DNA of 64,000 nucleotides from a virus. Position 1 is the first letter of the stretch, and each line of letters begins with the position of its first letter. The translations under genes and the position numbers were made by a program. Where the stretch lies: the IMG/VR virus record IMGVR_UViG_3300023178_001963; one strand, written 5' to 3'. Positions 1-37,923 of the stretch are shown piece by piece. The notes beneath the pieces were generated by a model that worked only from the letters and a program-made list of their open reading frames with translations, ran no database searches and was not told where the DNA came from.

Positions 1-948
1 AATTCCTTGATATCCACTGTTACAACTCCATCCTTCAAAATTATTAAAGTTAAAAGCATTGAAACGTTCTGCTTGGTCCATATACCACTTCTTACCTTTT
101 GAATCAGTGAACTCTACCTGCATATGCCATGGAACGCTTTTATCATTTTCACCAATAGCGTACTGTGGCATTTCAAATGTAGGCTTCGGTCTACCCTCCC
201 ATTTTCTTTTTACTTCAGTATAAGCCATTTGAGGCATACCATTCCACAAACGCTTCATTTGTTCTTCTGTATATCCTTCAACAACTTTTGACGCTGTTGG
301 GTCACTTTGGGGTTTGAGGGTAACGTTGATTCCTTGCTCGTGGAAGAAAAGAGCATTTTCCCAATCTTTTTCAAACCACTCGGGAACCATGACCATGTTG
401 ATTGTAATCTGTACATCGTGTTCCTGACACAGGATTAATTTGTCTGCAAATTCCTGCATCTTCTCCTTCGTGTCTAAATGCTCTGTATGTAAACTTGCTG
501 TAATACTTGCTCTATGAAAAGGTTTCGCTCTTTCCACATAATCCTCAAACCACTTAAGTGGGCGAGAACAATTACTAGTCATATGTATACTAGTATAGTT
601 AGTATTAGGAACATCATCAGCCAAATGGCCCAGTATGTCCAAGTATCCAGGGTGGAAGGTAGGCTCGCCCCCACTAAGACTAAAGTGAAAACTATTAAAT
701 CCATTATCACGTGCTTGCCTCTTTATTTCATCTACTGTTGCTAGACACAACTCTGTTGGTCTGTGATCTTTTCTGTCACTTCTGGCATAGGGCCAGCAAT
801 AACTACATCTATAGTTACAGAAGCGTCCAAGTAACCATGACACTGTAAATAAGTCACGGTAAAGTAATGTACGCTGTCCTACTTGTACTAAATCATCAAA
901 AGGTATTTTAGTAAAGTCATACTCACTCCATTTTAAGTCTTCACTCAT
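1..948 (-). CDS. Radical SAM protein (C-terminal auxiliary Cys domain type), 3'-truncated by the window edge
   Basis: Not in the ORF track. Manual translation from ATG at 948 (ATGA overlap with the upstream stop): MSEDLKWSEYDFTKIPF...VSWLLGRFCNYRCSYCWPY...SLSGGEPTFHP...FNNFEGWSCNSG; CxxxCxxC and GGEP motifs; frame open to position 1. Confidence 0.9.
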   Translation of the reverse strand, partial: MSEDLKWSEYDFTKIPFDDLVQVGQRTLLYRDLFTVSWLLGRFCNYRCSYCWPYARSDRKDHRPTELCLATVDEIKRQARDNGFNSFHFSLSGGEPTFHPGYLDILGHLADDVPNTNYTSIHMTSNCSRPLKWFEDYVERAKPFHRASITASLHTEHLDTKEKMQEFADKLILCQEHDVQITINMVMVPEWFEKDWENALFFHEQGINVTLKPQSDPTASKVVEGYTEEQMKRLWNGMPQMAYTEVKRKWEGRPKPTFEMPQYAIGENDKSVPWHMQVEFTDSKGKKWYMDQAERFNAFNFNNFEGWSCNSGYQGI

Positions 949-1571
949 AGTCGTCCAAATCCCCATTGTCTTTCTTCACACCACCAACAATAACCACACT
1001 GTTCTACTGTAGGATCAATGTCTGGTAGATGTTTCATCGTGTCATCCATCCATTCACAACTACTAGTTAACTCAAACAAATCTAATAAGTTATGTTTTCT
1101 ATATAAATTAGCAATACCACGTTTATCTATATTAGCAAATGGTAATCTAACTTTACCATCAAACAGAATTTCAGGGCGATTACCGTCTGGTGTTCTATCA
1201 TCTACTGGACCATCTTTACTAATGAAACTCTCAACGACATCTGCCGGCGGATTAGCTGTAGCACCATTATAAAAACAACTTATAGTATTACTATCTAATA
1301 ATGAACTAAGATCCTCGTTCAAGTTTTCTAATGTCTGATGTGGTATATGTCTTAATCTATGGTCATAGTTTGTAAATCCAGTAGCATTGCTACAGTACTC
1401 TATGATAGAAGGAGTTCTTTTTGCATTACGTTCAAATTTATCTGCTGCTGCTACTGTACATATGTACATTTTATTTTTATGTACAGACATCAGTAAGTAC
1501 AATAGAAGTGCGCTATCTGCACCTCCACTGACTGATACTCCTATAGGTTCATTCGGTGTTTCTATAATCAT
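945..1571 (-). CDS. QueC-like PP-loop ATP pyrophosphatase (7-cyano-7-deazaguanine synthase-like family)
   Basis: VSVSGGADS PP-loop; C-terminal SSC...CGYCWWCEER Zn-type motif as in the QueC family. Confidence 0.75.
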   Translation of the reverse strand: MIIETPNEPIGVSVSGGADSALLLYLLMSVHKNKMYICTVAAADKFERNAKRTPSIIEYCSNATGFTNYDHRLRHIPHQTLENLNEDLSSLLDSNTISCFYNGATANPPADVVESFISKDGPVDDRTPDGNRPEILFDGKVRLPFANIDKRGIANLYRKHNLLDLFELTSSCEWMDDTMKHLPDIDPTVEQCGYCWWCEERQWGFGRL

Positions 1572-2521
1572 AATTCTTCTTTTATAAATGTATCACGCTT
1601 CATTTGCTTACATACTTGCATACAGCGAGGAACAGGATTATCCCCATCCCAACTATCAATAATGCCCTTCCACACTTTACTGTTTATGGCATCTTCAATA
1701 CTTGCGTTTTCTAAATTTATCGTATTTTTATAATCGTTTTCTTCTAGTAGTGTTTCAAATTCATCTTTGTGAATACCTGTTACATTATATTCCATCATTT
1801 TACTATTTAAATGACAACAAGGTATTACGTTACCAGTATGATTAATAAAGATACGCTTTTGATTTCCATATTTACAACTCACATATGGTATCTCTACTGC
1901 GTTATCTATGTCTTCAGTCTTTGCCGCTTTCACACCTTTAGTGTCTTTACGATGACTAATAATAGTTTTAAAATTTTTAAACCCTTCGTCAGATGCTTTT
2001 TGTTTTGCTTCTTCCATCTGATGTTCGTTATGTTCAAAAACAATGAACTGCCAATTACTTCGACCACCTGCTGCGTTAAATGCTTTATAGTTTTGTTCTA
2101 CTTTTTTAAAGCTACTGCCTTCTCTATAAACTTCACTTAGTTCATCACTTCCATCGATTCCCCAGGTAACTGCGTGGCTCTCTGGTAGTAGTCCTGCTAA
2201 GTCTGTCCACCATTGTGGGTGACGCAAACTGCCATTAGTAGCAATGTTAATATGCGCACCCCAATCAGCAAAGTGTCTTATGATATCAAAGAATTGTGGG
2301 TGCGATGTGGGTTCGTCTACACTGCCACAAAAATTTATAATCTTAATACTTGGAAACATATCTTTTTGAAATCGTTCACGTATTGTATCAATTGTAATAT
2401 ATTCTTTGTTTAATATTTTATCAGCATGTTTAGATATAACTCTAAAACATCCTTTACATTGGATGTTACAAAAACTTGTTAGTTCTATATCTAACCATTC
2501 TATTGTTTTCATATCCCACAT
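1568..2521 (-). CDS. Radical SAM protein with C-terminal SPASM/twitch-like domain
   Basis: ELTSFCNIQCKGC; TNG; WQFIVFEHNEHQ; C-terminal C...PCC...CxxxC. Confidence 0.9.
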   Translation of the reverse strand: MWDMKTIEWLDIELTSFCNIQCKGCFRVISKHADKILNKEYITIDTIRERFQKDMFPSIKIINFCGSVDEPTSHPQFFDIIRHFADWGAHINIATNGSLRHPQWWTDLAGLLPESHAVTWGIDGSDELSEVYREGSSFKKVEQNYKAFNAAGGRSNWQFIVFEHNEHQMEEAKQKASDEGFKNFKTIISHRKDTKGVKAAKTEDIDNAVEIPYVSCKYGNQKRIFINHTGNVIPCCHLNSKMMEYNVTGIHKDEFETLLEENDYKNTINLENASIEDAINSKVWKGIIDSWDGDNPVPRCMQVCKQMKRDTFIKEEL

Positions 2522-2533
2522 TATGTATTCTCT

Positions 2534-3163
2534 TTATATTACATATGTTTTTATAGATTTACTATGAGAAACTATATTTCTAAAAACAGTACCATCATCA
2601 TTTAGTACAGTATTCCACGTATGTTCTTTATTAGGAAAACCTATACCCAATTGATAGTGTGGTTTTGAAAAAAATTCAATATCTGTTTCGCCTGTAACTT
2701 CTGTTACTAATTCAGCAATATCTTTTGAATCAAAACATTGATTGTATCCGGTACGGTATCCTAAAGCATTCGCTGCAAATGCTACAGCGCCACTGCTAAT
2801 TCCCATAGCAGTTCTGGCATTTAATAACCATGGATCAAAAAATCCTTGAGTGTTTTTCCAATCTCCAATGCCTTCTTTTTTAAGTTCAAACCAAGTAAAC
2901 ACCACAGGTGCATCAACTTGTGCGTTTCTACCTACAGTTTGTTGATTATCTGGATCTTCTGCCAATTCATAAAATTTACGATTTAAATCTCTATCGGTTG
3001 ATACTACTAATCTGTAAAATTCATCATTAGATTTAGTAGGCATGTTTATTGCTATATCAATTAGCGCATGTACATGTTCTTCTGGAACCGATTGTGTATG
3101 ATCCCAGTTACGTTGGCAATGTTCAGCGTTTTTGCTTGCTTCAATTAATTCATTTACATTCAT
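2534..3163 (-). CDS. Nitroreductase-family flavoprotein
   Basis: N-terminal QRNWD, MPTKSN (aligns with the APSxxN motif), AxAANALGYRTG and LGIGFP motifs typical of the nitroreductase fold. Confidence 0.7.
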   Translation of the reverse strand: MNVNELIEASKNAEHCQRNWDHTQSVPEEHVHALIDIAINMPTKSNDEFYRLVVSTDRDLNRKFYELAEDPDNQQTVGRNAQVDAPVVFTWFELKKEGIGDWKNTQGFFDPWLLNARTAMGISSGAVAFAANALGYRTGYNQCFDSKDIAELVTEVTGETDIEFFSKPHYQLGIGFPNKEHTWNTVLNDDGTVFRNIVSHSKSIKTYVI

Positions 3164-4374
3164 TTTGTGTTCTCAAATATACTCATGTCTTCAATGTGTT
3201 GAGGTAAAATACTCATTAGTTCATCACGTTCAATACTCTTAGGTGTACACATACCGCATCCACAATGCTTTCCAGGACCTAGAGGGCATGTTATAATAGG
3301 CATTGTTTTATTTTCTATATTAGTACGGAACTCTTCTATAATCTTATCGCATTCTGAAATAGATCCAATTGGACCACGTGTACCATCAAAACGTGCTTGA
3401 CAAGTTTGGTGATGCCAGATAGTATCTGTTTGTTGTTCAATATGTAAAAAGAACCAGTTGACACTACATTGCCAGTTTCGAAACTTAGCAAACTCTAAAA
3501 ATGTGCTTTTACTCCAGCAACCATCTGTACCGCAAGTTTCCATTGTGCGACTACCACAACACGGTCTACCCAACTGTCTAGCAAATTTCTTTTCTTCTGT
3601 TTTTTCGACTTGTACAGCACCAGCTTCGTGTCCTACTTCTGCTTCTGCTTCTTCCGTAGTTTTATCTTTATTAAGTGCTGCATTTTTATCTGCCCAATAA
3701 TCTTTCATCCACTGTAATTGTTCTTCAGTATATTTATGGGCATAACTATTTTTACTATCTTCGTGTTCACCAATCATACGCGGAACGTAACCGATACCAT
3801 CACGTTCGAAACGCATACATAATTCTTTACATTCATCCCAATATTCAGCATGGAACATAACATTAATTTTGATTGGGAATCCTTTTTCAGTTAGATAGTA
3901 AATGTTATTAACAACTTGTTTTTTTAAACTTGAATGTGCTTCCGCATGGTAACTGATAGTCATAAAGCCATAGTTTTCGCAAACACTGTCTGCCATCTTT
4001 TTACCGAAAGCACCGTTACTAGTAATAGTCAAGTTTAGTCTATAATCATCTTTATAATTTTCACGCCATGTTTGCTGTAGCCATTCGCCAAACTCTAAAA
4101 AGTTTGGATTGTTTGTAGGTTCACCACCAGTAAAATTGATGTTTATACCTTTATTTTTTTTATAAGGCATCATTAAATTTGCGTAATCAAAAATAAATCT
4201 GCCAGTCTTTTTTAAAGTTTCTAAATTAGCATGTGGTGAAAAGTTATCGTGTCTATGTGGTGGACAATATGTACAGTCATAGTTACAACGTCTACCCACA
4301 TCCCACGTTACAGTAAGATTGTCACCATCCAGCAAATTGATTGCTGTAAAATCAGTGTATTCTAAATCTTTCAT
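3160..4374 (-). CDS. Radical SAM protein with C-terminal Cys-rich auxiliary domain
   Basis: VTWDVGRRCNYDCTYC, FTGGEPT, TSNG; C-terminal PCC, WQC, CPLGPGKHCGCGMC. Confidence 0.92.
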   Translation of the reverse strand: MKDLEYTDFTAINLLDGDNLTVTWDVGRRCNYDCTYCPPHRHDNFSPHANLETLKKTGRFIFDYANLMMPYKKNKGININFTGGEPTNNPNFLEFGEWLQQTWRENYKDDYRLNLTITSNGAFGKKMADSVCENYGFMTISYHAEAHSSLKKQVVNNIYYLTEKGFPIKINVMFHAEYWDECKELCMRFERDGIGYVPRMIGEHEDSKNSYAHKYTEEQLQWMKDYWADKNAALNKDKTTEEAEAEVGHEAGAVQVEKTEEKKFARQLGRPCCGSRTMETCGTDGCWSKSTFLEFAKFRNWQCSVNWFFLHIEQQTDTIWHHQTCQARFDGTRGPIGSISECDKIIEEFRTNIENKTMPIITCPLGPGKHCGCGMCTPKSIERDELMSILPQHIEDMSIFENTK

Positions 4375-5822
4375 TTTATTGGAGTCTCCAAAAATTCTAT
4401 TATGTCCGGATGAATGTAATCATTATAACATTGATTTCTACTCATGTCAAACACTTTTATTTCTTTTAGCATATTCAATCTATGTTGTTCTGTTATTTCT
4501 AAATCTAAGTTTGCTTCTAAGAAAGAAATACCACTTGTCATATTAGTATGATAATAATCATTATTATGACTATAATTTTCTTTGATATTTTTAAATTTTT
4601 CTATCAAGTCTAACTTTATATGTTTAGGTAAAAACTTAACATTTATGTATTTTTCTTCGGGCCAAAGCAAGTCTAAAAAGAATACAGCAAATTCATTTGA
4701 TTTTCTACCATACTCTTTATGTAAACTATAATGAAACTCTACTAAATCCTCTAAGTAATGTGCATTTAGCACACTAAGAACGACATTGAAACTAAAGTTT
4801 TTTATGAATCCATATGGTGTTCTTTTATAATTAATATCTTTGACAGATTCTAAAATATTTCTTAAACTCTTTTCTAATACTGAAAATTTCATAGGGTATC
4901 TTATATATTCATAATTTTTCCCATATCCATCGATACTACAATTTAATACAAGACCGTCAAACTTTTTTAACTTTTCTATATTTTCATTTGAAAACTTAGT
5001 AGCATTAGTATGGAACTCTAACATAATATTTTTTGAGGCTCCAGTTTCAATAGCCGTATCTAAAAACTGTATAAAAGGTTTACTCATAAGAGTTTCACCA
5101 CCAGTTGCTTTTATATGTTTTAAATTATGTATATTGTCTAATATATTTTCCCACTGTTTTCCGTCTTTCCAGTTGTATACTTGGTATTCGCCACCTATGT
5201 ATAATTCTTGATCCGTTCTCTTTTGTTCTTCTAACGATAATTCAGTAAGAGAATTTTCTTTTATGATAGTATCTCTGCGTTTCTGCCAATCAAATCCTTG
5301 AATACCACTTGTGTCCACATTGTTATCGGCAAAATATTGATAGTCTAATCTAAGTTTATTACTTAAACCTGGTTGACACATACGACATCTCAAATTACAG
5401 TTTTCACCAAACGCAAAATCAATAGAACTTAATTTTGGATTTTCTATAAGATCATCTAATTCGTCTTCGTCTGTTATTTTTAATAAGCCAGGAGGCATGC
5501 TGTCTAATCTATAACTATAAACGTCATCTCCATTTCCGTTTTCTTCCATCTTCCAACACGTAGCACATGAAGGATGTCTTCTGTTAGTTAACGCATACTC
5601 TCTTATTTCATTCATCGTCTTGCCATGAAATATTTCTTCTGCGGTAATAGTATCAGGATTAGATATCAGTTCTATGTGGTTATTTAACGGATCAGGCATA
5701 TCAGGACGTATCGAATTACAGCACGGCGCAGCATTCGTAATGCCATACTTGTAATGCCAAGTCTTTAACGCCAGTAATGAAAATGGAAACCAGCAAAAAG
5801 TATTATCTTTAGTTGGTTTCAC
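4371..5822 (-). CDS. Radical SAM protein with N-terminal twitch-like Cys domain
   Basis: N-terminal CWFPF...PCC...CATCW; CNLRCRMC; TGGET; YIRYP. Confidence 0.92.
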   Translation of the reverse strand: MKPTKDNTFCWFPFSLLALKTWHYKYGITNAAPCCNSIRPDMPDPLNNHIELISNPDTITAEEIFHGKTMNEIREYALTNRRHPSCATCWKMEENGNGDDVYSYRLDSMPPGLLKITDEDELDDLIENPKLSSIDFAFGENCNLRCRMCQPGLSNKLRLDYQYFADNNVDTSGIQGFDWQKRRDTIIKENSLTELSLEEQKRTDQELYIGGEYQVYNWKDGKQWENILDNIHNLKHIKATGGETLMSKPFIQFLDTAIETGASKNIMLEFHTNATKFSNENIEKLKKFDGLVLNCSIDGYGKNYEYIRYPMKFSVLEKSLRNILESVKDINYKRTPYGFIKNFSFNVVLSVLNAHYLEDLVEFHYSLHKEYGRKSNEFAVFFLDLLWPEEKYINVKFLPKHIKLDLIEKFKNIKENYSHNNDYYHTNMTSGISFLEANLDLEITEQHRLNMLKEIKVFDMSRNQCYNDYIHPDIIEFLETPIK

Positions 5823-6687
5823 CTAACTTTTCCTTTGCTGTTGCTTTTGCCCATTCACGTTCGGCACACCAATAACAGCCTCTATTAGGATCATCTGATA
5901 ACTGATCGCACGTGGGTAGTGGTGTTTCGCCATGTACATATTTGGTGTGATCCACAAAATCATCTGGGAATATAACTTTATCACCTTCACAACTACGAGT
6001 AGTGTTAAGTAAATCTTCCCAACCACGTCTATAATATTGTGCCATAATAAAGTCTTTGGTGATAAGTTTCCAAGGATGAACCAGTACTGGATCTCTGAAG
6101 GCTGTATCATCTTTTTCAATATATTGTGGACATACGCTGGTAGTTGATAATCTTTCTTCATTCCATACTCTATCCCATGGACCTTTGGTATGATTTACCA
6201 CATCAGGTGCTGGATTATTTGTAATAAAATTATATACAGCATCTAACTTATATGTGTGAACAGCAAAACTATTGAAACTCTGTGTACATTGCCTATCACC
6301 GGTTGTCCCTAGTTTCTCTATAATACCAATAGCGCCTTCTTCTAACTCTGGTGGAATAAAATTCTGAATACGTTCCATACAAACATTTGGGAACATTTCA
6401 CGTATTTTATTATATACTTCTACACTAATAGGTGCTGCCCAAGGTCTATTATTCCAAACTCTTACGTTTGTTAAAAAATAGATTGCTGTGTTGTTTCCAT
6501 GTTTTTCAATTAACTCTGCTAGTATCGCTGTGCCAACAGCACTATCTGCGCCGCCACTAACATTTACACCAACACGTTTCCAAGTCGGATCATACGGATA
6601 TAATGCCTCGTCTACTTGATGTAATACATCAGTACTGATATTGTGCATTTCATAACTTTTATTACTTAAACTAACATCAAATGCCAT
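5809..6687 (-). CDS. QueC-like PP-loop ATP pyrophosphatase, second paralog
   Basis: VNVSGGADS; TRSCEG...C...GCYWCAEREWA. Confidence 0.72.
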   Translation of the reverse strand: MAFDVSLSNKSYEMHNISTDVLHQVDEALYPYDPTWKRVGVNVSGGADSAVGTAILAELIEKHGNNTAIYFLTNVRVWNNRPWAAPISVEVYNKIREMFPNVCMERIQNFIPPELEEGAIGIIEKLGTTGDRQCTQSFNSFAVHTYKLDAVYNFITNNPAPDVVNHTKGPWDRVWNEERLSTTSVCPQYIEKDDTAFRDPVLVHPWKLITKDFIMAQYYRRGWEDLLNTTRSCEGDKVIFPDDFVDHTKYVHGETPLPTCDQLSDDPNRGCYWCAEREWAKATAKEKLGETN

Positions 6688-8077
6688 CGAATATTCCTTT
6701 CATATCTTTAAATACTTCGTAAAAATTTAAGTTTCTTTGTTTGTCACACAGCATTAAATATTCTTTTAATTCGGGAAGGCGAATACTCCAATCCTCACTC
6801 TCCATAAATTTGAGCATCCCTTCTAATCTATCAATACCATAACTTGCGCTACGCCATTCATCATAATTTACTTTACCCTTGTGCCAGCCAGGAATACCTT
6901 TTTCCCAGTTAGCCTCCCACCATGGATAAAACTCTTCGTATTTTTTTCTACATTTTTCTTTAAATTCAGTAGGTAGAACTTTAACATTTAAATGTGGTGG
7001 ATGGTATACAAAGTGATAATTAATACCACCAGCTCCAAACGGCCACATATTAATCTTTTTAAATCCTTGTTCTAATTTCCAACGAATAAAGTCTGGCAAA
7101 TAGTAGATATTAAGTGCTTGTACAGCACACGCAACTGTAATCTCAACATTATCAGTTGTTTCATTATCTAGTATATGAAAAACTTCTTCAGTACGCTTCC
7201 ACTCACTAGGATAACGAATATAACTATTCATTTCACCAATACTATCTACACTATAATGGAAACGAACTAGTTTAAATTCTTTCCACAAGTCAAATAAGTC
7301 ATCACGCCACTCAACTCCGTTTGAATTATAACGTAGTTCTAAGTTTTTAGCATGACCCTGACGTATGCATTCTTCTAATATCTCATAGTGTTCTTCAATA
7401 ATAAGACTTTCGCCACCAGCAAAATAAATCTGCTGCATATTCGGTATCTGTGAATAGAATTGTTCCCAAAATACTGGATTTTGTTTATGCCAGTTGTAAG
7501 AACTACCATTTGTGCTGCCCTTATCAGCCCATTGCATTGTTTCCTTCAATGAATTATTCTGAACAAGTGGGAATATCTTTGAATGGTCTTTAATCCAACC
7601 TGAACTATCGTGTGGCGAACACATAACACATGCTAACTGACATTTTGTACCAAATCGCAAATCAATATACGTCAACTCTGGTGGGACTTCACCATCTTCA
7701 GTTGTATTATCTAGTAATCTGTCAACATCTACACGTTGACTCCAGTAATTAGTCTCCCACATACGTTTTGAATTGTGTCCAGCAGCCTCTTCTTTAAAAC
7801 ATTTTACACAACTCGGTGGGACTTCACTGTTCATCATCTGTCTGCGTACATTCTTCATGTACTTACTATTCCAAGCAGTTTGAAAATCAGTTACATTCAG
7901 ATTGTTGGGTCTACCTTCATCATCTTTTAGAATACCTACCATACCACCGTGTTCTTTATCATTAGTTGGTCCAACACTGGATGCATTAGCAGTACAACAT
8001 ACACGCATTGAACCATCTGGTCTTGTACTCAGATGTACCCACGGTAAAATACAGAATGTATCACTTTTCTTTGTCAT
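6677..8077 (-). CDS. Radical SAM protein with N-terminal twitch-like Cys domain
   Basis: FCILPW...VCC...CVKC; DLRFGTKCQLACVMC; FAGGES; YIRYP. Confidence 0.93.
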   Translation of the reverse strand: MTKKSDTFCILPWVHLSTRPDGSMRVCCTANASSVGPTNDKEHGGMVGILKDDEGRPNNLNVTDFQTAWNSKYMKNVRRQMMNSEVPPSCVKCFKEEAAGHNSKRMWETNYWSQRVDVDRLLDNTTEDGEVPPELTYIDLRFGTKCQLACVMCSPHDSSGWIKDHSKIFPLVQNNSLKETMQWADKGSTNGSSYNWHKQNPVFWEQFYSQIPNMQQIYFAGGESLIIEEHYEILEECIRQGHAKNLELRYNSNGVEWRDDLFDLWKEFKLVRFHYSVDSIGEMNSYIRYPSEWKRTEEVFHILDNETTDNVEITVACAVQALNIYYLPDFIRWKLEQGFKKINMWPFGAGGINYHFVYHPPHLNVKVLPTEFKEKCRKKYEEFYPWWEANWEKGIPGWHKGKVNYDEWRSASYGIDRLEGMLKFMESEDWSIRLPELKEYLMLCDKQRNLNFYEVFKDMKGIFDGI

Positions 8078-21804: not shown

Positions 21805-21918
21805 CTATTTGTAAATGAAAGGATCTCTCTTACGAAGTTCTTCCATTTTCTTCTTTAGCTGCTTTTTTCTTTTATACTCGACAAAAGGCCAAGTTATGAT
21901 TTCCCAAAGTGTTTTCAT
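21805..21918 (-). CDS. 37-aa basic microprotein upstream of the carbamoyltransferase
   Basis: Manual translation MKTLWEIITWPFVEYKRKKQLKKKMEELRKRDPFIYK*; start overlaps the upstream stop (TAATG); fills the intergenic gap. Confidence 0.75.
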   Translation of the reverse strand: MKTLWEIITWPFVEYKRKKQLKKKMEELRKRDPFIYK

Positions 21919-24778: not shown

Positions 24779-24796
24779 CACAGAGAGGACTTAAAC

Positions 24797-27180: not shown

Positions 27181-28056
27181 TTAAATGAAACATTCTTTCT
27201 TTCCGTAAATGAATGCTTGTTTTATTAAATCTGAATCGTTTGTTACTTTAAATGTTAAATCTGTTGTCATCCTTGGTAATCGTACGGTTACACTTTCACA
27301 TGTATCTGGAAAGTTATCATTACAATATTTTAAAAATTTCACAGCATCAAACTTTGGGTATTCTACATAACCTCTATCATCAGGTTTTTCCCAAGATGAA
27401 TGATAACTGTAAAGATGTAAATGTTTTATTCTTCCTGCTATTCTTTCTATGAAGCCAAGAAGATTTCCTTCATATGATTTTTCTAAATCTTCTAAAGTTG
27501 AAATATACTTGTTTACTTTTAATATGTTAACAGGGATTTCAATTCTACTTTCATCTTTAGGTTTCATTAAGATTATACGCAGAGGCTTATCGATTATTTG
27601 ATGAGATTGGCTTATTGTACTTCCTGGATGAATTGTATTTCTATGAACGTTGCTTAATACAGGAGGCGACTTAACATCTCCTTCTATCAAATCACTACAT
27701 AATACTAGCATACGATAGAATCTTGCGAATAGATTATCAAAGTCTGCTTCATCGTTTTTGTCTATAAGCTGTAAGTCTTTTAAAAAATCTAGACCTTTTA
27801 AAACGCCACTACCATATGGTATACTATGATATTTTTCTGAAAGGTTGCCATCTAACCACAGTTGACTCATGTTATGTTCCCTTGTGTCTATAAAACAATC
27901 TATCAAACTAAATTCTTTTAATACGTCTTTCCAATCTTCGTATGTTGGTTGTGCTATCGTACGCCATGAGTGAGATGGATGAGTCAATAACGCATAGTTT
28001 ACATCATCATCTCTATTATCTAAAAATATCTTTTTAAATAATTCATGTTCATTCAT
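27181..28056 (-). CDS. Hypothetical protein
   Basis: 291-aa ORF within the operon; no family recognised. Confidence 0.7.
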   Translation of the reverse strand: MNEHELFKKIFLDNRDDDVNYALLTHPSHSWRTIAQPTYEDWKDVLKEFSLIDCFIDTREHNMSQLWLDGNLSEKYHSIPYGSGVLKGLDFLKDLQLIDKNDEADFDNLFARFYRMLVLCSDLIEGDVKSPPVLSNVHRNTIHPGSTISQSHQIIDKPLRIILMKPKDESRIEIPVNILKVNKYISTLEDLEKSYEGNLLGFIERIAGRIKHLHLYSYHSSWEKPDDRGYVEYPKFDAVKFLKYCNDNFPDTCESVTVRLPRMTTDLTFKVTNDSDLIKQAFIYGKKECFI

Positions 28057-30187: not shown

Positions 30188-31805
30188 TCATTCTTCCTAT
30201 TGCTGCCGCTAAATCTGGTAGACTTTCTTTCCAGTCTTCTTTTCTTATTTTATCAAGTCTAATTGTGTCTCTTTTAAATTTTTCCCACATATTAGGGTCT
30301 TGTTCTTTTGCCCACATTTGTCCTAACGCTTGCTTTAAAGCAGTTTCAGTAATACCTGCCCATATCATATCATGTTGTGTACAAGTGTCGATTGGCCATC
30401 TTTTCCAGATATGAGTTATAAATCTATTATATAGATCCTCTACTTCTTTTTTAAGATATGTAGGTAAATTTTGTATACAATATTGCTCTGGACCAAATAC
30501 TAAATGTATATGCATTTCATTACTAAGACGCTTAAAGTTTTGTTCTTTTATCCAATACATAAAGTCTGGTACATGAAACACATTCATAATACTAAGAGTT
30601 AAAGTAACTTTAGCTTCTAAATTATCAAGTCTGGGATCAGTATCTAACTCTTTTAGTAATCTTTCAGTCTTACTCCATTTTCCAGGATTTCGTATGTATT
30701 CAAAATGACTATCCATACCATCAAGACTCATCCCTATTACTACTTTTTTGAATTGTGCCCAAAGATCGAAAAAGCTCTTACTACTCGCAGCCATATTACT
30801 ATTATATTCTAACTCTATATTTTTCGATAAACCTTTTTCAACAATCATTTCTAACAATTCTCTATGCTTATGATTGATAGTAGGTTCACCTCCTGTAAAA
30901 TATAATCTTTCTATATACTTTAAGTTTTTTGTAATATCAGTCCATAGTTGTGAACCTTCATACCAACTTTTCATATGAGGTATCTCAACCTGACCTTTAG
31001 AATTTGTTATGATTTCAGCATGTTCTCCGTCTAAATCAATTGTAAATGGTTTATCAGATTTTTTACTGTCTACCATTTCCATATAATCTTTATACCACAA
31101 ATCACTATTTGATGGACCACAAGACCTGCATTTTAAATTACATTTATTACCAAAACGTAGATCCCACCATCTAATAGGAAAATCTTTGTTTTTAATTTTT
31201 CCATCTTTTTTAGTTTTTTCATATGCATTTAGTACTACATCTGGAAAATGTTTATTGGCATATTTTCTTCTTGACATGCCATACGGCACAGCATCTTCTT
31301 CGTCAAAACATAATTTACACGCAGATGGTCTTTTACCTTTCAACATATCACTTCGCAACATCTTCCAAAATTTTGCGTTTCTGTTTCTGCTTATCTTATC
31401 ATTATAATTCAATAACGTACCATCATCTTTTTCAATAAGTCCTACATTAGATGACTCATCCGTGTATATCATTTGACAACAAGCACGAATACTACCATTC
31501 GCATTAGTACCAGCATGGATCCATGGAATAGTACAGAATGAACTTTGGTCTGCTTCTCTTAGTAATTTAGATTCTAATAAATCATTGTAAACCTCACCGA
31601 GTCTATCTTTTACAATATCTATTATATCATCATCTATTATTGGTGATCTAAGTACGCTAAGTAATACATCTTGGTCTTCATCAAATGTTGCTACAATTTC
31701 AAGTACCTCACGTGGACAATCTGGATCTAGAATCATGTCTATACGTTGCTCAGGCGTTCTGTATATGTCTGGATTCAGATCAAATCTACTATCTACATCA
31801 CTCAT
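30117..31805 (-). CDS. Radical SAM protein with N-terminal helical extension and twitch-like Cys domain
   Basis: FCTIPW...ACC...CKLC; DLRFGNKCNLKCRSC; FTGGEPT; YIRNP. Confidence 0.92.
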   Translation of the reverse strand: MSDVDSRFDLNPDIYRTPEQRIDMILDPDCPREVLEIVATFDEDQDVLLSVLRSPIIDDDIIDIVKDRLGEVYNDLLESKLLREADQSSFCTIPWIHAGTNANGSIRACCQMIYTDESSNVGLIEKDDGTLLNYNDKISRNRNAKFWKMLRSDMLKGKRPSACKLCFDEEDAVPYGMSRRKYANKHFPDVVLNAYEKTKKDGKIKNKDFPIRWWDLRFGNKCNLKCRSCGPSNSDLWYKDYMEMVDSKKSDKPFTIDLDGEHAEIITNSKGQVEIPHMKSWYEGSQLWTDITKNLKYIERLYFTGGEPTINHKHRELLEMIVEKGLSKNIELEYNSNMAASSKSFFDLWAQFKKVVIGMSLDGMDSHFEYIRNPGKWSKTERLLKELDTDPRLDNLEAKVTLTLSIMNVFHVPDFMYWIKEQNFKRLSNEMHIHLVFGPEQYCIQNLPTYLKKEVEDLYNRFITHIWKRWPIDTCTQHDMIWAGITETALKQALGQMWAKEQDPNMWEKFKRDTIRLDKIRKEDWKESLPDLAAAIGRMNDAEKRKQRTKLADLSKKVKTKV

Positions 31806-31807: not shown

Positions 31808-33202
31808 TTACTGTTCCTTAAAAAATTCTATTTCGTTATCACTATATTTTACAAGACTACTAGCATCATTTATATCTCTGATTGGTACCAAACTAAGAGT
31901 ACCTTTCATTCTTCCATTTGCACCATTGGTATGCCATTGTGGTATGTTTAAAATTCTATCTCTTAGTTTTTGCGCTCTATCTAAAAATCCTGGAGGGGTC
32001 ATAAGTTTAATTTCTAACCATAGATCATCATCAACATCATCATGGTGCTGCATGATTATTTTACAATTTTCGATAAATCTGTCTTCGTTTCCACGGTATA
32101 AATCCATACTAGCAAAATGTGCGCTCATATTGACACTATTTATATACTGTGTTGCCTCACGCCAAAACTTAGTACTGCGACTACCATTTGTAGTTACCAG
32201 CGTCCATTGATTTTTAGATTTCAAATGCTTTAAGATATCAATAAATTGAGGATGCATTGTAGGCTCTCCTCCACCAAAGTTCCATCTGATTTGATCTCCG
32301 CCGCTCCAATGTTCAATAATCATATCTATCGTTTCGATAACTGATTCATATGTAGGAAATCTTTCTGTGTTACTATGAACTGCTGGCCAGCAATAATCAC
32401 AAGCATAATTACATCTTCTACCAATATCCCATAATATCTGATATGGTATAGGAAAGTTCATTTCTACAGCGACTCCTTTGTCAATAGATTGTGCTGTGTA
32501 ATCATCGCCACCTCGTTCCGTTCCAGAATAACCGTTATGAGTCACATCTAAAAACTTTATATGCTTTTTTGTTTTTGCTTTACTTAATATAACATCAGCA
32601 CCGCAGCCACAATTATTAAATGGACATACTACATACTCTTCGGGTATATCTATACCTTCACGGATATTACCTAATAGACCCCAATTGTCTGGTATATCAT
32701 CTAGTGTACTTTCCCATTTCCAAGCACTAGCAGTTGTATCTATTTTTTCTTTTATCATATTTCTACCTAAATTACTAAAGAATGCTTCTTCAGTTTCTTT
32801 TAGGGTCTGCTGTAATTTTACGTGTTGTTCACAAGTTTCCCAGCCTATTTTTGGAAGAGGCCAACCCCCTTCTGTATTTTCATTATACCATTCAATATGA
32901 GGATATGGACCAAAAACACGTTCACGTTCAAGTCTCCATTCTTCTACAACTGTATTATAATGTGCGCTACTATTTCTGTGGCTACTAGCACAGTTTGCAT
33001 TCCATATGTTACCGTCGTAATCAATATAAAGTCCTCGGACACCCGCACTACACTTCCATCCCTTCCAAGAGTTATGACCTCTAGCAATCGCTTCGTCTAC
33101 ACTCATTCTAATGAACTTGCCATCCGAACCATACAAACGCAATTGCTTATTGTCTAGTGGGATGCTTGGATCTTCTTTAATCGGCATCTTCCAAAACCTC
33201 AT
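31808..33202 (-). CDS. Radical SAM protein with the auxiliary Cys domain at the N-terminus (start may be 33187)
   Basis: WKCSAG...NC...CPFNNCGCGAD precedes ILWDIGRRCNYACDYC and FGGGEPT. Confidence 0.9.
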   Translation of the reverse strand: MRFWKMPIKEDPSIPLDNKQLRLYGSDGKFIRMSVDEAIARGHNSWKGWKCSAGVRGLYIDYDGNIWNANCASSHRNSSAHYNTVVEEWRLERERVFGPYPHIEWYNENTEGGWPLPKIGWETCEQHVKLQQTLKETEEAFFSNLGRNMIKEKIDTTASAWKWESTLDDIPDNWGLLGNIREGIDIPEEYVVCPFNNCGCGADVILSKAKTKKHIKFLDVTHNGYSGTERGGDDYTAQSIDKGVAVEMNFPIPYQILWDIGRRCNYACDYCWPAVHSNTERFPTYESVIETIDMIIEHWSGGDQIRWNFGGGEPTMHPQFIDILKHLKSKNQWTLVTTNGSRSTKFWREATQYINSVNMSAHFASMDLYRGNEDRFIENCKIIMQHHDDVDDDLWLEIKLMTPPGFLDRAQKLRDRILNIPQWHTNGANGRMKGTLSLVPIRDINDASSLVKYSDNEIEFFKEQ

Positions 33203-34184
33203 AACAATCAGCAGGTAATACTTTTTTACTCATAATGTCAAAGTTACAATGACACATACTTTTTGTACACATAGTAGGTTTTCTAGGCCACTTGATATTC
33301 TTAGGGTCTTTCATATTACCAAATGCACCACCAACTCTACACCAGCCGATCATAACACTTCCGTCAAAATCTACAACAATCTGTTCTATGCCACTCCAGC
33401 AATACCAGCCTTCCCAGTCATTTGTTTTATCGTTAATAAATCTATGTGCGCTGCTGTTCTGCTTTAAATCATTCACATCGTCACACATATCCATACTACC
33501 GCGGTATATCTTCCACTGCTTATCATACTTGATTTTACTACCCAACAGTTTCCATTGGTCATCGATATATTTGATTTGTTCTTCACTGTAAGAGTAAAGA
33601 GTTTCACCAAAATCAATAATCAACGGCTGTAGTGCTAATGAGATATTAGGTATTTCAATAACTTTTTCGGCAACGTCTACACAAGTAGGCCAGATTTCAG
33701 GATTGTAATGCATCATAATATTAACATGTGTTCTACACTGTTGACTCATAATTTTAACAACTTCTAAAAAGTGTTCTGGATTTCCTTCTTCTGGATGAAA
33801 ACTTAAACACACGTGGTCGAACTTTTCTTTATTCTTCTCCCACCATCTTATAGTTCTACTACTGTTACTGATAAATCCTATATCATGTCCTATTTCTTTA
33901 ATGTATTCAGCACACTTAACAAAGTCTTTCCATAGTGTAACTTCACCGCCTGTAAATTCAAAATATACAGTTCTAGGAGAGTAATGCTCAACAACTTCAT
34001 CGATAAAACCTTTAACTACGTCAAAATCATTCCATCCAAAGCTACCGTCGTTAAGAATACTAGGACAATAAGAACATGTAAAGTTACACATGTTGCCTAA
34101 ATTCCAATTAACTACGACCCAATCTTTACATTCTTCATGGTGATGATCTAGTCTATTATAAAAGTTCTGTGGTCCTAATGGCAT
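33177..34184 (-). CDS. Radical SAM protein with C-terminal auxiliary Cys domain
   Basis: VNWNLGNMCNFTCSYC; FTGGEVT; WYCWSG...WC...CTKSMCHC. Confidence 0.92.
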   Translation of the reverse strand: MPLGPQNFYNRLDHHHEECKDWVVVNWNLGNMCNFTCSYCPSILNDGSFGWNDFDVVKGFIDEVVEHYSPRTVYFEFTGGEVTLWKDFVKCAEYIKEIGHDIGFISNSSRTIRWWEKNKEKFDHVCLSFHPEEGNPEHFLEVVKIMSQQCRTHVNIMMHYNPEIWPTCVDVAEKVIEIPNISLALQPLIIDFGETLYSYSEEQIKYIDDQWKLLGSKIKYDKQWKIYRGSMDMCDDVNDLKQNSSAHRFINDKTNDWEGWYCWSGIEQIVVDFDGSVMIGWCRVGGAFGNMKDPKNIKWPRKPTMCTKSMCHCNFDIMSKKVLPADCYEVLEDAD

Positions 34185-35171: not shown

Positions 35172-35756
35172 TTAATCTCCTAATGAATATGTACTGAAAA
35201 CATAACGTGTATAAACACTTATGTCATATTTATGTTCGTAGTTAATGTGTATCTCTTTGCCTGTTAGAATCTCTGAAAACTTAATTTTCAAATCTTCTAC
35301 TATAAACTCAGGTTCGTCTTTTAATGTGATGTAAAAACGGTGATCTAATTTACCACCTATTTTTACTTTTTCAGAAGCGTCTGGTACAAAATAATCACGC
35401 AATAAATCTGTGGCACGTATTGTTATGCCGTCATCCACAATCTTTACGATTACTTCTGGATTGTCAGTACGTTCTATCTTCTTAACATATGTTGTCAAGT
35501 TATTAGACTTGTATTCTTCACTTGTTAATTTTTTTAGATGATGATTCAAAGTTTTACTATCGTAGAATACTTTATAGTCACGCAATCTTTCCGTGCCTAC
35601 AACTAACCCCATAATATCTTTAATTTCAAAATATGCGTGTTGTACACCAGGTTCTTCTGAAATTCTATTATCGATTGAAAGTATAACCCCTCGGTCATCA
35701 AAGTGGATGATTTTGAACTCAGTATTCCAATCTATTTCTTTAATACTCTTAATCAT
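35172..35756 (-). CDS. Hypothetical protein
   Basis: 194-aa ORF tightly packed in the operon. Confidence 0.7.
   Translation of the reverse strand: MIKSIKEIDWNTEFKIIHFDDRGVILSIDNRISEEPGVQHAYFEIKDIMGLVVGTERLRDYKVFYDSKTLNHHLKKLTSEEYKSNNLTTYVKKIERTDNPEVIVKIVDDGITIRATDLLRDYFVPDASEKVKIGGKLDHRFYITLKDEPEFIVEDLKIKFSEILTGKEIHINYEHKYDISVYTRYVFSTYSLGD
35227..35246 (-). promoter_or_regulatory. Intragenic copy of ATTAACTACGAACATAAATA (putative late promoter)
   Basis: 20/20 identity with 9457-9476(+); ~57 nt upstream of the ATG at 35170. Confidence 0.6.
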
Positions 35757-36610
35757 AGTACCACACCTTCATACTTTTTTATGATACTATGTGTTAGCCA
35801 ATCTTTTTCAACATAATGAAATGGATAAATTTGTTCAAAATTTCCAACAGTTAATGTTAAATCGTCTGCTACGTTAGAAAATATATCAGTATTCCAAATG
35901 TTAGATATTTTATGCTTGGGTATATTTTGTATATGACTCTTCATATGCACAAATGTTGGGTATGATTTAATACTGTAGTCGCACACTAACTCTTCAATAT
36001 CCATAAACTTTACTGCTAACGCATATGCGATATCAGCACTCATCCAATCTTGTCCGCTTCCACGTAGATGCTGTTCATACACATCTTCCCAGTTTGTCAT
36101 AATTTTTTCTACAGTTTTGAAAAAATCATATGCAAACTCTGATTTATTGAAGTATGAGAAATTACTGTAAACATTTGGCAAATCAAGTGACGTAAACTTT
36201 TTTCTATAGAAGTCGCTTGTTACTTCTTCATTTCTAAATGTCTTTACATTTGTACACAACCAAACATCTTTTTGCGCTAGATAATCCCACCAATGATCAA
36301 CACTATGAGTGAATATCATATCACTATCTAGTATAATAGTTTCATCATATGGAGACATGTGAATATACTTCCACTTGTTTTCTATCTTCCAAGTAGATTC
36401 ATCTGCTTCATCTTCCCACGGAATATCTACAATATGGTCAAACACTTTTCTATGTTTATCAGTAATTAAAGTTTTTGTGTATTCATCTACACATACACAA
36501 ATAGAGTTTTCACGTTGTGTTGCTTTAAGACTTAATGCTAACGCATATGTCATTCTTAGATAGTCATGCTTTTTGTTATTTTGAACTATAACAATATACC
36601 CTCTACTCAT
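35753..36610 (-). CDS. GT-A glycosyltransferase (GT8/mannosyltransferase-like)
   Basis: RGYIVIVQN, SPYDETIILDSD (DxD), FVHMKS, PFHY. Confidence 0.75.
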   Translation of the reverse strand: MSRGYIVIVQNNKKHDYLRMTYALALSLKATQRENSICVCVDEYTKTLITDKHRKVFDHIVDIPWEDEADESTWKIENKWKYIHMSPYDETIILDSDMIFTHSVDHWWDYLAQKDVWLCTNVKTFRNEEVTSDFYRKKFTSLDLPNVYSNFSYFNKSEFAYDFFKTVEKIMTNWEDVYEQHLRGSGQDWMSADIAYALAVKFMDIEELVCDYSIKSYPTFVHMKSHIQNIPKHKISNIWNTDIFSNVADDLTLTVGNFEQIYPFHYVEKDWLTHSIIKKYEGVVL

Positions 36611-37476
36611 GCCAAGCCTCCAAATTCCAATAAGCTATCCATATGTCTTTCAATAGAACGCTTATTCATAATATGAAGGTCACAATTTTTAAATCTACTT
36701 AGTACACATTCTTTAGACTTCTTAAGAGTAGATGTTGTAAGAACCATTTCCTTTTCGCTGCTAACCTTGTATATGTCATTTGTATCATAGCTATTCATAA
36801 GATATTTTATAGGTAGTTCTGGAACTGTATACTTTACATTACCATTTAAAATATGAAGAGCAATTGAAAACGCATAATCATTTCTGAATAGTGCGCCTTC
36901 ACAATTGTATAAGTTGTAGTAATACATATAATGTTCTTTAACATTATGTATCATACTGAATAGACTTTCAGTAAATACTGTTTTTCTAAAATAGAACACA
37001 GTCGCCCAATACATATCAATTGAATAATCGTCTATTTTTACCACGTTATTATCTTTATCTTCTCCGCCGGATATATCCCTATAACTTTTTGTAATCATAA
37101 AATCATTATGACTATCCCAAACACCGTCTAGTGCGTTACTCATTACAAAATAATCACAATCTATTACTAGTGTTTGTGCGTATGGAGAGATATCAAAAAC
37201 AGAACTTCTACTTGCGTTTATAAATTTAGCATATTCTGTATCATCTGCTGTATCACGGTATAGTCTATTTGTATAAAACCCACGATTGTCTAATGTGATA
37301 ACTCTATCAAACGCACGACTTACCAATTCTTCATCATACTCAGAATGTACATCAGTGACTAAGCAAATTTCATCAAATCCAGACAAATTCTTTCTAGCAT
37401 AGCCAGCACTTGCGCAAGCTATCTTTACGTAGTCAACGTAATCATTGTTTTGTGCAAATAATAAAATACCCTTCAT
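36607..37476 (-). CDS. GT-A glycosyltransferase (paralog of the downstream gene)
   Basis: KGILLFAQN, SPYAQTLVIDCDY (DxD), WATVFYF, FRNDYAFSIA, HIMNK. Confidence 0.75.
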   Translation of the reverse strand: MKGILLFAQNNDYVDYVKIACASAGYARKNLSGFDEICLVTDVHSEYDEELVSRAFDRVITLDNRGFYTNRLYRDTADDTEYAKFINASRSSVFDISPYAQTLVIDCDYFVMSNALDGVWDSHNDFMITKSYRDISGGEDKDNNVVKIDDYSIDMYWATVFYFRKTVFTESLFSMIHNVKEHYMYYYNLYNCEGALFRNDYAFSIALHILNGNVKYTVPELPIKYLMNSYDTNDIYKVSSEKEMVLTTSTLKKSKECVLSRFKNCDLHIMNKRSIERHMDSLLEFGGLA

Positions 37477-37868
37477 TATAATTCTAGTGCCACATCAATC
37501 CTTCTGGAGCTTCTTAATTGCTCGTATTCCAAGTAATACTCATTTACAGCAAAAAAGTATACATCTGAAATTTTATCTAAAAATTCTTTTGTGTTATTAA
37601 TGATTATAGGTAGTCTATTCTTGTCAAGTATAATAGCCTCTTCTCTACCAGATGAAACTATAAAGTTAACAAAACCTATAAGTTCAGGCGATACTTCAAA
37701 TGTACCTCCATTCATACTGTATGACAATAAATTATCTACTTTAGCTTTGATGTTTTCTTTATTCAAGTTAAAGGTCTTCATAGCGTTTTTCATATGAAGA
37801 GCATTTTCGATTTTTTCTTTTTGTAAGTTTCTATTTAAATCATCATTCGATGGTTTTCTCTTAGCCAT
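37476..37868 (-). CDS. Hypothetical protein, first gene of the enzyme operon
   Basis: AGGAG RBS; downstream of a consensus sigma70 promoter; TAATG coupling to the next gene. Confidence 0.75.
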   Translation of the reverse strand: MAKRKPSNDDLNRNLQKEKIENALHMKNAMKTFNLNKENIKAKVDNLLSYSMNGGTFEVSPELIGFVNFIVSSGREEAIILDKNRLPIIINNTKEFLDKISDVYFFAVNEYYLEYEQLRSSRRIDVALEL

Positions 37869-37894
37869 ACGTGTACTCCTGATATAATACTACA

Positions 37895-37923
37895 ATTATA
37901 CACTATATGATTTTTGTTGTCAA
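37895..37923 (-). promoter_or_regulatory. Perfect sigma70 consensus promoter TTGACA-N17-TATAAT
   Basis: Minus strand reads TTGACAACAAAAATCATATAGTGTATAAT. Confidence 0.85.

Follow-up and report, generated by a model that had tools for sequence, protein, structure and literature searches.

What would a bacteriophage do with fifteen radical S-adenosylmethionine (radical SAM) enzymes encoded next to its tail genes? The question is raised by a stretch of 64,000 nucleotides, here called the window, which corresponds to bases 4610–68609 of the 92,010-bp linear viral record IMGVR_UViG_3300023178_001963 from IMG/VR. The left part of the window holds an island of enzyme genes of ~38 kb that extends from 164 nt beyond the left edge to position 37868. 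As judged from sequence comparison, the region is most likely a hypervariable island for the building and tailoring of sugars, equivalent in a jumbo phage to the "host recognition cluster" (HRC) known from marine T4-like phages. The coordinates of the features are given in the table.

The source DNA is that of a phage, to judge from the gp25, gp6-like wedge, hub and 3369-aa virion protein genes carried by the window. The right half is a myophage tail module with gp25-like, 1441-aa gp6-like wedge, hub and lysozyme genes. The wedge is 31–35% identical to the wedges of Rak2, K64-1, Serratia BF and Atu_ph07, and with a baseplate akin to those of the Rak2, PA5oct and Atu_ph07 phages, the virus appears to be an uncultured Rak2/PA5oct-like jumbo myophage. 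A megablast search of 20 kb against cultured phages gave no DNA-level match. The GC content is even along the window (0.29–0.38), and CheckV places the completeness of the 92-kb record at about 25%.

The window contains 15 radical SAM open reading frames (ORFs), each with one CxxxCxxC motif, and a scan of the whole record returned the same 15 and none besides, in agreement with a preliminary description of this DNA that had counted at least 15. Thirteen pass the gathering cut-off of PF04055 (29.5 bits). The ORF at 13468–14997 (+), with its start corrected to 13675, is under this cut-off, yet scores 228 bits against the NCBIfam model NF033640 (cut-off 170 bits); the ORF at 12540–13634 reaches 25.5 bits with PF04055, also under the cut-off, and is a paralogue of 14990–16075 with 33% identity. 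Seven ORFs belong to NF033640 (N_Twi_rSAM, N-terminal twitch), with near full-length matches at 190–412 bits, and display invariant N-terminal Cys (C9, C27, C28, C90, C93) followed by CxxxCxxC and GGE. When aligned, these seven paralogues proved too divergent for a pattern scan. Three further paralogues are of the SPASM/twitch type (1568–2521, 12540–13634 and 14990–16075), four have MoaA/viperin-like N-termini (1–966, 3160–4374, 31808–33202 and 33177–34184), and one, at 28049–30187, is the B12-binding (class B) enzyme that had been expected (PF02310, 40.2 vs 32.1 bits; PF04055, 49.4 bits). No radical SAM protein reaches the NCBIfam cut-off of any characterized family, the best being BlsE (25 vs 400 bits) and AprD4 (25 vs 500 bits), and 28049–30187 reaches that of no class B subfamily. 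Single-sequence PDB searches with 6677–8077, 19125–20225, 16884–18191 and 27181–28056 gave nothing usable.

The island was compared with five long related records (G001–G005; G001, of 383 kb, is rated complete) and two further contigs (L120 and L121). It lies behind the same tail-side genes in all seven, which answers the synteny check that had been proposed; as seven independent contigs share the gene order, an assembly chimera of cellular and phage DNA, also raised in the preliminary description, was ruled out. The long relatives carry 8–19 radical SAM genes each in a single cluster, most of them NF033640 members (roughly 7–14 per genome). On the tail side, the island starts in all five with homologues of 37476–37868, the two GT8-like genes and 34193–35170. 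At its other end stands an orthologue of the first radical SAM gene in three of the five, two of which have thymidylate synthase directly abutting. Homologues of 39989–41062 and 41073–41747 flank the island in some of the five, baseplate and giant-protein genes were seen adjoining it in G001 and G002, and L120 and L121 reproduce the right half of the window gene for gene. The interior varies from ~22 to 58 kb, and the 111 non-radical-SAM proteins of the five relatives form 94 clusters.

In these genomes, both the site of the island and a core of its genes are conserved, whereas the filling is highly variable. The core consists of the genes for two GT8-fold proteins, two GT-A-like proteins, a methyltransferase-like protein, one SPASM-type radical SAM enzyme, one N-twitch radical SAM enzyme and the terminal radical SAM enzyme. 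The exchangeable cassettes in the window include six more N-twitch radical SAM genes, the B12-binding radical SAM gene with the cytidylyltransferase-like gene, the carbamoyltransferase gene with those for DUF6071 and a 37-aa ORF, and the two genes for PP-loop enzymes. On the left, the first radical SAM ORF stops 164 nt past the window edge and is followed by a convergent + strand block with an Asp/Arg-hydroxylase-like gene, thymidylate synthase, dihydrofolate reductase (DHFR) and HNH; contrary to what had been supposed, the island, therefore, does not continue leftwards, nor is the vicinity free of nucleotide-metabolism genes. The right border is the 130-aa ORF at 37476–37868, adjoining a tail-fibre-like gene. 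Co-orientation with the tail genes holds for most of the island, the exceptions on the + strand being two radical SAM genes and the four-gene block 22751–25537. Three ORFs with TTG starts were over-extended, and their corrected starts are 9441 (−), 9482 (+) and 13675 (+). None of the island proteins has a predicted membrane segment, and the island encodes soluble proteins throughout.

Four proteins of the island resemble glycosyltransferases (GTs), a likeness supported at the level of the fold for both pairs of paralogues. The model of 35753–36610 matches LARGE1, UGGT and GlyE in addition to glycogenin. The GT8-like pair has no Pfam hit at E ≤ 0.01, and membership of Glyco_transf_8 was thus not seen; their ESM leads are at 0.95–0.96. 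In the second pair, the model of 34193–35170 shows a GT-A-type fold in its N-terminal 155 residues with an invariant DGD, and its weak fold matches include the PBCV-1 capsid glycosyltransferase A64R, Mimivirus R699 and the glycosyltransferase of mycobacteriophage Che8. A profile of this family gave nothing usable against PDB sequences.

The carbamoyltransferase is the clearest assignment in the island. Its nearest solved relatives are NovN (7.6e-62), GdmN and TobZ (1e-39), and it scores 153 vs 1000 bits for the NodU equivalog. The membership of the TobZ/NodU family stated in the preliminary description holds, whereas the analogies with BtrN-, NeoN- and GenK-type enzymes are not memberships, with NCBIfam hits far below the cut-offs. 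The 37-aa ORF upstream of the carbamoyltransferase gene fills the gap to the DUF6071 gene exactly, and its C-terminal ELRKRDPFIYK is invariant (G002, 188,962–189,072; G003, 175,234–175,344). This ORF may encode a small partner subunit of the carbamoyltransferase.

The remaining enzyme names fared unevenly. The four GT-like proteins stand at the fold level, as described above. The QueC-like proteins are PP-loop paralogues with a marginal relation to QueC: the 23.2-bit match covers the C-terminal part only, no single stretch passes PF06508, the sole NCBIfam match is a sub-threshold TilS N-domain, and a genome scan for QueC gave E = 0.0016, below the cut-off. The CMP-sugar synthetase-like protein (26524–27168) covers positions 9–84 of the 217 in the PF02348 profile, its N-terminal part only, and scores 23 vs 205.7 bits for PseF. 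The nitroreductase-like protein remains below its cut-off, and the methyltransferase-like proteins correspond to a language-model lead and a motif. The four SGNH-like ORFs conserve a block-I-like N-terminal GCSxxxG plus one Asn, and matched no SGNH Pfam model. For ten unassigned ORFs, Pfam searches at E ≤ 5 yielded no more than faint hints.

A sugar or glycan pathway of some kind, as previously suggested, is probable because the GT8 and GT-A folds and the O-carbamoyltransferase coincide with nucleoside diphosphate (NDP)-sugar enzymes in the islands of relatives and with the presence of NF033640 in bacterial O-antigen-type loci. The relatives' islands encode two UDP-glucose/GDP-mannose dehydrogenases, a short-chain dehydrogenase/reductase-type epimerase/4,6-dehydratase, a DegT aminotransferase, a TylF-type O-methyltransferase, a sugar C-methyltransferase, a mannose-6-P isomerase-type cupin and nucleotidyltransferases. 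In bacteria, NF033640 was found in 3–4 of 401 Pseudomonadota and 4–5 of 401 Bacteroidota genomes (about 1% of 802), whereas 14 control genomes had none. The neighbourhood was examined at five bacterial loci. A chromosomal contig with dnaE and accA carries four to five tandem NF033640 genes inside an O-antigen-type locus, where they are flanked by RmlD, Wzm, Wzt (with a carbohydrate-binding Wzt_C), TylF-type and class I methyltransferases and a WbsX glycosyltransferase. Two more loci have a GT2 gene 1.3–2 kb from NF033640, together with an epimerase gene in one of them; GT2 genes lie 14–19 kb off in the fourth, and the contig of the fifth has none.

The same neighbourhoods bear on a different explanation, in which the island would mature a peptide or protein, as in the synthesis of ribosomally synthesized and post-translationally modified peptides (RiPPs). 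The radical SAM enzymes would then cross-link, epimerise or methylate a virion protein or a small precursor, and glycosylation would be a side step. SPASM/twitch and B12-binding radical SAM enzymes are typical of RiPP maturation, many of the sub-threshold NCBIfam hits are peptide maturases, nitroreductase-like and PP-loop proteins occur in RiPP clusters too, and a conserved 37-aa ORF is present. Nonetheless, this ORF travels with the carbamoyltransferase and not with radical SAM genes, no peptide-maturase family cut-off is reached, the bacterial NF033640 neighbourhoods are polysaccharide rather than peptide loci, and the relatives' islands contain NDP-sugar enzymes. We consider peptide maturation the least probable of the explanations discussed here.

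The motif ATAAATA occurs 13 times vs 44.8 ± 5.9 expected, a three-fold depletion, and nine of the copies lie 5–32 nt upstream of a start codon, with one more at 56 nt (34193–35170), a pattern beyond chance. As had been noticed, it precedes structural genes (gp25, the 41073 gene and the tail fibre) and enzyme genes alike (DUF6071, 12540, 8074–9441, 9482 (+), 13675 (+) and 25524). Both 40-nt gaps between divergent radical SAM genes contain back-to-back pairs (9447–9476 and 13660–13673), and the double motif at 13660–13673 forms the palindrome ATAAATATATTTAT. In four genes the motif is separated from the ATG by only 5–8 nt, so that their late mRNAs would be nearly leaderless. ATAAATA resembles the T4 late promoter, TATAAATA, and from this likeness late co-transcription of the island with the tail genes can reasonably be inferred. 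The island is joined to the tail module physically and probably also transcriptionally. An identical 19-nt string, TTAACTACGAACATAAATA, precedes two different genes (9458–9476 on the + strand and 35227–35245 on the − strand), and a late-type signal may extend upstream of ATAAATA.

In the pathway that we propose, the island genes would be transcribed late with the tail genes from ATAAATA-type promoters, and nucleotide-activated sugars would be made by the island or drawn from the host. The radical SAM enzymes would edit these sugars by oxygen-independent radical chemistry (C-methylation, epimerisation, oxidation/deoxygenation or C–C coupling), carbamoyl, methyl and acyl groups would be added in later steps, in which carboxylates may also be amidated, and the four GT-A-type transferases would transfer the product to an intracellular acceptor. 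This acceptor would be one of the virion proteins encoded in the adjacent tail-fibre/giant-protein module, and the variable coat of glycans so formed would influence adsorption or shielding. A virion-protein acceptor is favoured because of the lack of membrane segments and export genes, the tail-side position and the promoter motif, and we infer it tentatively, at somewhat below an even chance. The more specific proposal that a glycan rewritten by radical SAM enzymes is attached by GT8-type enzymes to tail-fibre or other virion proteins is possible, if rather doubtful.

Several points weigh against this pathway. The mechanism is drawn from family, fold and neighbourhood, and the late timing from the motif. 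A GT-A fold, itself predicted from models, does not reveal the acceptor, and for 34193–35170 nucleotidyltransferases of the MobA type tie with glycosyltransferases (MobA and IspD, Z 9.5). Classical NDP-sugar genes are few in the window, where only the weak cytidylyltransferase-like ORF was found; no NF033640 member is characterized, and the bacterial neighbourhoods examined number five. The linkage to tail genes could reflect where genomes tolerate insertions. Finally, the analogous island of pelagimyophages has been read as a means of host O-chain modification, and not of virion glycosylation (PMC7029224).

Modification of the host surface would be carried out by soluble transferases acting on undecaprenyl-linked O-antigen or capsule intermediates at the inner membrane face, with host exporters displaying the glycan. 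The benefit would be a block to superinfection, or that lysed cells do not retain the released progeny. A role in lipopolysaccharide (LPS) synthesis is common among GT8 enzymes, and the bacterial NF033640 genes occur in ABC-transporter-type O-antigen loci, in which the polymer is finished in the cytoplasm. In the pelagimyophage island, for which this is the published interpretation, GT8 is the commonest glycosyltransferase family (PMC7029224). By contrast, neither a flippase, ABC transporter or exporter, polymerase, ligase nor polyprenyl-phosphate transferase was found in the island, and its proteins lack membrane segments. Moreover, the late-type motifs are common to the tail genes, whereas exclusion would be most useful early, and in every case the island is situated within the structural module. 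We regard a host-surface role as unlikely, though as the next most probable after a virion acceptor.

The scale of the island, and its content of radical SAM and B12-binding radical SAM enzymes, is also like that of secondary-metabolite clusters. The product could then be a free small molecule, an aminoglycoside- or nucleoside-like glycoside that acts on the host or on competitors and is attached to no macromolecule. The closest solved relatives of the carbamoyltransferase tailor antibiotics (NovN, GdmN, TobZ), and there are weak NCBIfam hits of the AprD4, BlsE and PhpK type, but these are far below the cut-offs. Furthermore, no exporter or resistance gene was found in the island, the four transferases are a conserved core at the border of the tail module, and the cassette variability among close relatives (94 clusters for 111 proteins) better fits a surface structure under diversifying selection than an unchanging metabolite. 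A free metabolite is, therefore, improbable.

Hypermodification of the phage DNA was weighed in view of the two QueC-like PP-loop proteins, one of them just over the Pfam QueC cut-off, and of the thymidylate synthase and DHFR genes that abut the island. A complex group would be built on 7-deazaguanine or on a hydroxymethyl-pyrimidine, with the QueC-like enzymes as the link to deazaguanine genes elsewhere. Relatives do encode FolE, QueD and a DpdA-like ORF, and no clear QueC: FolE and QueD are found in two of them, with FolE 16–17 kb beyond the island and, in one, a DpdA-like ORF with DSGGYQ near FolE. These deazaguanine genes, however, are 16–22 kb away in the replication region, and the island itself has no DpdA/tRNA-guanine transglycosylase (TGT), FolE, QueD or QueE, and thus not the DpdA 7-deazaguanine system. 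A distinct module for DNA modification seems, therefore, to be located in the replication region of this lineage. Neither PP-loop gene has a homologue in the complete relative, G001, which has the island all the same, so that they do not serve as an indispensable QueC. In addition, PF01702 (TGT) finds nothing in the record or in four relatives (together G000–G004), and the thymidylate synthase is a canonical full-length match (1.5e-110), located beside DHFR and convergent to the island. The motifs suggest expression late with the tail genes, after the onset of DNA replication. Taken together, a role in DNA modification is very improbable.

Features of the window and the evidence for each (G and L numbers are related records and contigs; counts out of 80 refer to the loci compared with the core radical SAM gene)
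Feature	Coordinates	Strand	Evidence
Radical SAM, distal island end, full ORF 376 aa	1..966	−	PF04055 55.9 bits; orthologues 73–83% identical in G001–G005
PP-loop ATPase, QueC-like	945..1571	−	ATP_bind_3; QueC 23.2 vs 22 bits; SGGADS; paralogue of 5809–6687
Radical SAM with C-terminal SPASM/twitch domain	1568..2521	−	PF04055, PF13186
Nitroreductase-like, weak	2534..3163	−	PF00881 21 vs 23.5 bits, below cut-off; three such proteins in relatives' islands
Radical SAM, MoaA/viperin-like N-terminal group	3160..4374	−	Pfam/NCBIfam, paralogy
N-terminal-twitch radical SAM (NF033640)	4371..5822	−	234 bits
PP-loop paralogue	5809..6687	−	BLASTP to 945–1571 2.8e-6; homologues in 41/80 related loci
N-terminal-twitch radical SAM, clade-wide core gene	6677..8077	−	NF033640 412 bits
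N-terminal-twitch radical SAM (true start 9441)	8074..9441	−	314 bits
N-terminal-twitch radical SAM	9482..10756	+	209 bits; ATAAATA 5 nt upstream
N-terminal-twitch radical SAM	10725..11834	−	190 bits
SGNH-like (GCSxxxG family)	11831..12547	−	motif and paralogy only
Radical SAM with SPASM-like C-terminus	12540..13634	−	CxxxCxxC; paralogy to 14990–16075
N-terminal-twitch radical SAM	13675..14997	+	228 bits
Radical SAM, island core gene	14990..16075	−	PF04055; orthologue at least 50% identical in 67/80 related loci
SGNH-like (GCSxxxG family)	16075..16884	−	motif, paralogy
Class-I-methyltransferase-like C-terminal domain	16884..18191	−	ESM Atlas lead 0.92; paralogue of 18191–19132
Methyltransferase-like paralogue	18191..19132	−	GGGMG / IRSFDI motifs (GxGxG-, Rossmann-type)
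C-terminal domain paralogous to GT-A-like 34193–35170	19125..20225	−	35% identity over 241 aa; Pfam GT2 E=0.08
O-carbamoyltransferase (NodU/CmcH/TobZ family)	20260..21795	−	Carbam_trans_N 136.6 bits and Carbam_trans_C 183.3 bits, both above cut-offs
Conserved 37-aa micro-ORF directly upstream of carbamoyltransferase	21805..21918	−	62–70% identical, same position in G002, G003
DUF6071, member of GCSxxxG (SGNH-like) set	21918..22649	−	PF19547 42.9 bits; ATAAATA 26 nt upstream
Insert of four ORFs: 99 aa, lipoprotein (23053–24027), 83 aa, 246 aa	22751..25537	+	PF14099; lipobox N-terminus
SGNH-like C-terminal domain protein	25524..26519	−	GDSL_2 E=0.29; motif
Cytidylyltransferase-like (CMP-sugar synthetase-like)	26524..27168	−	PF02348 25 vs 22.6 bits; weak PseF, KdsB similarity
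291-aa accessory-cassette protein	27181..28056	−	no family or PDB match; syntenic in L120, L121
B12-binding radical SAM (class B, methylase-type)	28049..30187	−	PF02310, PF04055
N-terminal-twitch radical SAM	30117..31805	−	332 bits
Radical SAM, N-terminal extension ~250 aa	31808..33202	−	PF04055 49.3 bits
Radical SAM	33177..34184	−	PF04055 39.7 bits
GT-A-like transferase, very large Pfam-less phage family	34193..35170	−	AlphaFold2 pLDDT 87; Z 10.5 to GT-A glycosyltransferases
194-aa protein	35172..35756	−	homologues 30–33% identical, same place in G002, L120, L121
GT8-fold glycosyltransferase-like	35753..36610	−	AlphaFold2 pLDDT 84; Foldseek 1.7e-7, probability 1.0, to glycogenin; invariant DxD
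GT8-fold paralogue	36607..37476	−	paralogy to 35753–36610
Conserved 130-aa protein, tail-side island border	37476..37868	−	homologues at same border in G001, G002, G003, G005, L120, L121
Tail-fibre-like protein, Big_9 domain	37927..39957	−	differs among relatives; ATAAATA 25 nt upstream
Two tail-module proteins (357 aa, 224 aa)	39989..41747 (39989–41062, 41073–41747)	−	phrog_11259; homologues flank island in G002, G003
3369-aa virion structural protein	41804..51913	−	26–27% identity to virion structural proteins of PA5oct, SCTP-2, Atu_ph07
Baseplate wedge (gp6-like) and gp25-like genes	51916..56602	−	phrog_10646 6.8e-240; PF04965

The closest known arrangement is the hypervariable HRC of pelagimyophages and cyanomyophages described by Zaragoza-Solas et al. 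(2020), which is located in the structural module by a giant protein and tail fibres, contains GT8, LPS-type sugar genes and radical SAM cassettes, and was interpreted by its authors as serving host O-chain modification (PMC7029224). The present island shares with it the setting in uncultured marine myophages, the large hypervariable region by a giant virion protein and tail fibres, the GT8-like enzymes, the exchangeable radical SAM cassettes and LPS-type sugar genes such as UDP-glucose dehydrogenase. Conserved flanks, a 22–58 kb variable interior beside tail fibres and glycosyltransferase-like genes were all found here. The HRC phages are T4-like with genomes of about 150 kb, whereas the present lineage is jumbo, about 380 kb, with a Rak2/PA5oct/Atu_ph07-related baseplate, and its island is dominated by radical SAM enzymes (15 here, 8–19 in relatives), seven of them from one expanded family. 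The HRC paper contains no gene-level analysis of the radical SAM genes and no experiment (PMC7029224). What is already known is, therefore, a hypervariable tail-fibre island with GT8 and radical SAM cassettes, of which the island described here is a radical-SAM-dominated jumbo-phage variant.

Other systems share single traits. Nishimura et al. (2017) reported a marine T4-like environmental genome with 12 radical SAM genes, likewise an uncultured myophage with a large set, but only as Fe–S-related gene content, with no island structure or link to sugars described (PMC5332604). The antibiotic pathways of BtrN, GenK, AprD4 and BlsE, and of TobZ and NovN, also combine twitch- and B12-type radical SAM enzymes with sugar enzymes; the carbamoyltransferase is a clear family member, whereas for the radical SAM proteins the likeness is of kind and not of membership, as all scores are below the cut-offs. 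Virus-encoded glycosylation of virions was reportedly described by Freeman et al. in 2023 for mycobacteriophage Che8-type operons. In the Che8-type systems, as with PBCV-1 A64R and Mimivirus R699, the GT-A enzymes, encoded beside structural genes, have capsid, tail or fibril proteins as their substrates in the cytoplasm. The present island resembles these systems in its GT-A genes by structural genes, in clusters that vary between clades and in weak fold matches; they differ in having few transferases and no radical SAM enzymes. NF033640 is catalogued with no characterized member and is rare in bacteria, compared with roughly 7–14 paralogues per phage genome here, and no experimental study of such an island, or of this family, came up in a literature search.

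The lineage is abundant in aquatic metagenomes and devotes about a tenth of its genome to oxygen-sensitive radical enzymes of an unstudied family. Identification of the product would lead to new enzymology, and, given the link to bacterial O-antigen loci, these may also hold unknown sugar modifications. The role of the hypervariable island on the tail-fibre side in marine myophages (virion coat, conversion of the host surface or other) would be settled at the same time, which bears on host range, superinfection and phage–host arms races in the ocean. If the proposed pathway is correct, the product would be the first glycan on any virus particle to be tailored by radical SAM enzymes, NF033640 would constitute a new class of sugar-modifying radical enzymes, one that has expanded in phages, and the exchangeable cassettes would lend diversity to the surface of the virion in much the way that O-antigen loci do for bacteria.

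The core radical SAM gene at 6677–8077 has orthologues with 79–89% identity in the best 80 of 294 matching IMG/VR contigs, to which the ortholog counts refer. Its homologues in a large protein collection exceed 2,000, all unnamed, and among cultured phages it matches in three only, at 23% identity. It is 83% identical to the G001 orthologue, whereas the wedge (51916–56241) is only 32% identical, a contrast that indicates either very strong constraint on the core gene or its recent exchange among diverged phages. A contig scan with the core gene returned six metagenome-assembled genome (MAG) contigs from unrelated taxa, three of which are low in GC with island synteny and are probably mis-binned phage. 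Outside likely phage contigs no close cellular homologue turned up, and an origin as a host-derived auxiliary gene was rejected on this ground. Two Bdellovibrionales MAG contigs (L099 and L101; GC 0.42 and 0.50) contain several NF033640 genes in an arrangement unlike that of the low-GC phage contigs, and may represent cellular copies or another phage lineage.

Additional proteins were observed in and around the island. The relatives' cassettes (G001–G005) also hold a RuBisCO-large-chain-like protein (3e-28), fatty-acid desaturases, a fatty-acid hydroxylase, TauD, S-adenosylmethionine decarboxylase and nitronate monooxygenase. Within the 22751–25537 insert, the 246-aa ORF alone recurs in relatives. 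The lipoprotein of this mid-island insert (23053–24027, +), which has the lipobox LSVLGC and a polysaccharide-lyase-like domain (PF14099) and is not present in the five long relatives, could be a depolymerase or an exclusion lipoprotein. A Gly–Tyr repeat (GYxGYxGY...) at residues ~281–302 of 39989–41062, close to the C-terminus of this tail-module protein, was considered as a glycogenin-style Tyr acceptor and dropped, since the orthologues in relatives lack the repeat. To the left of the window, an Asp/Asn beta-hydroxylase-like protein (record coordinates 3819–4448, +) adjoins thymidylate synthase and converges on the island; such a hydroxylase is counted among the core genes of pelagimyophages (PMC7029224). 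A full-length ClpP-type protease (57069–57668, +; PF00574, 5e-81) is encoded on the opposite strand between the gp25 and lysozyme genes, and is probably the prohead protease.

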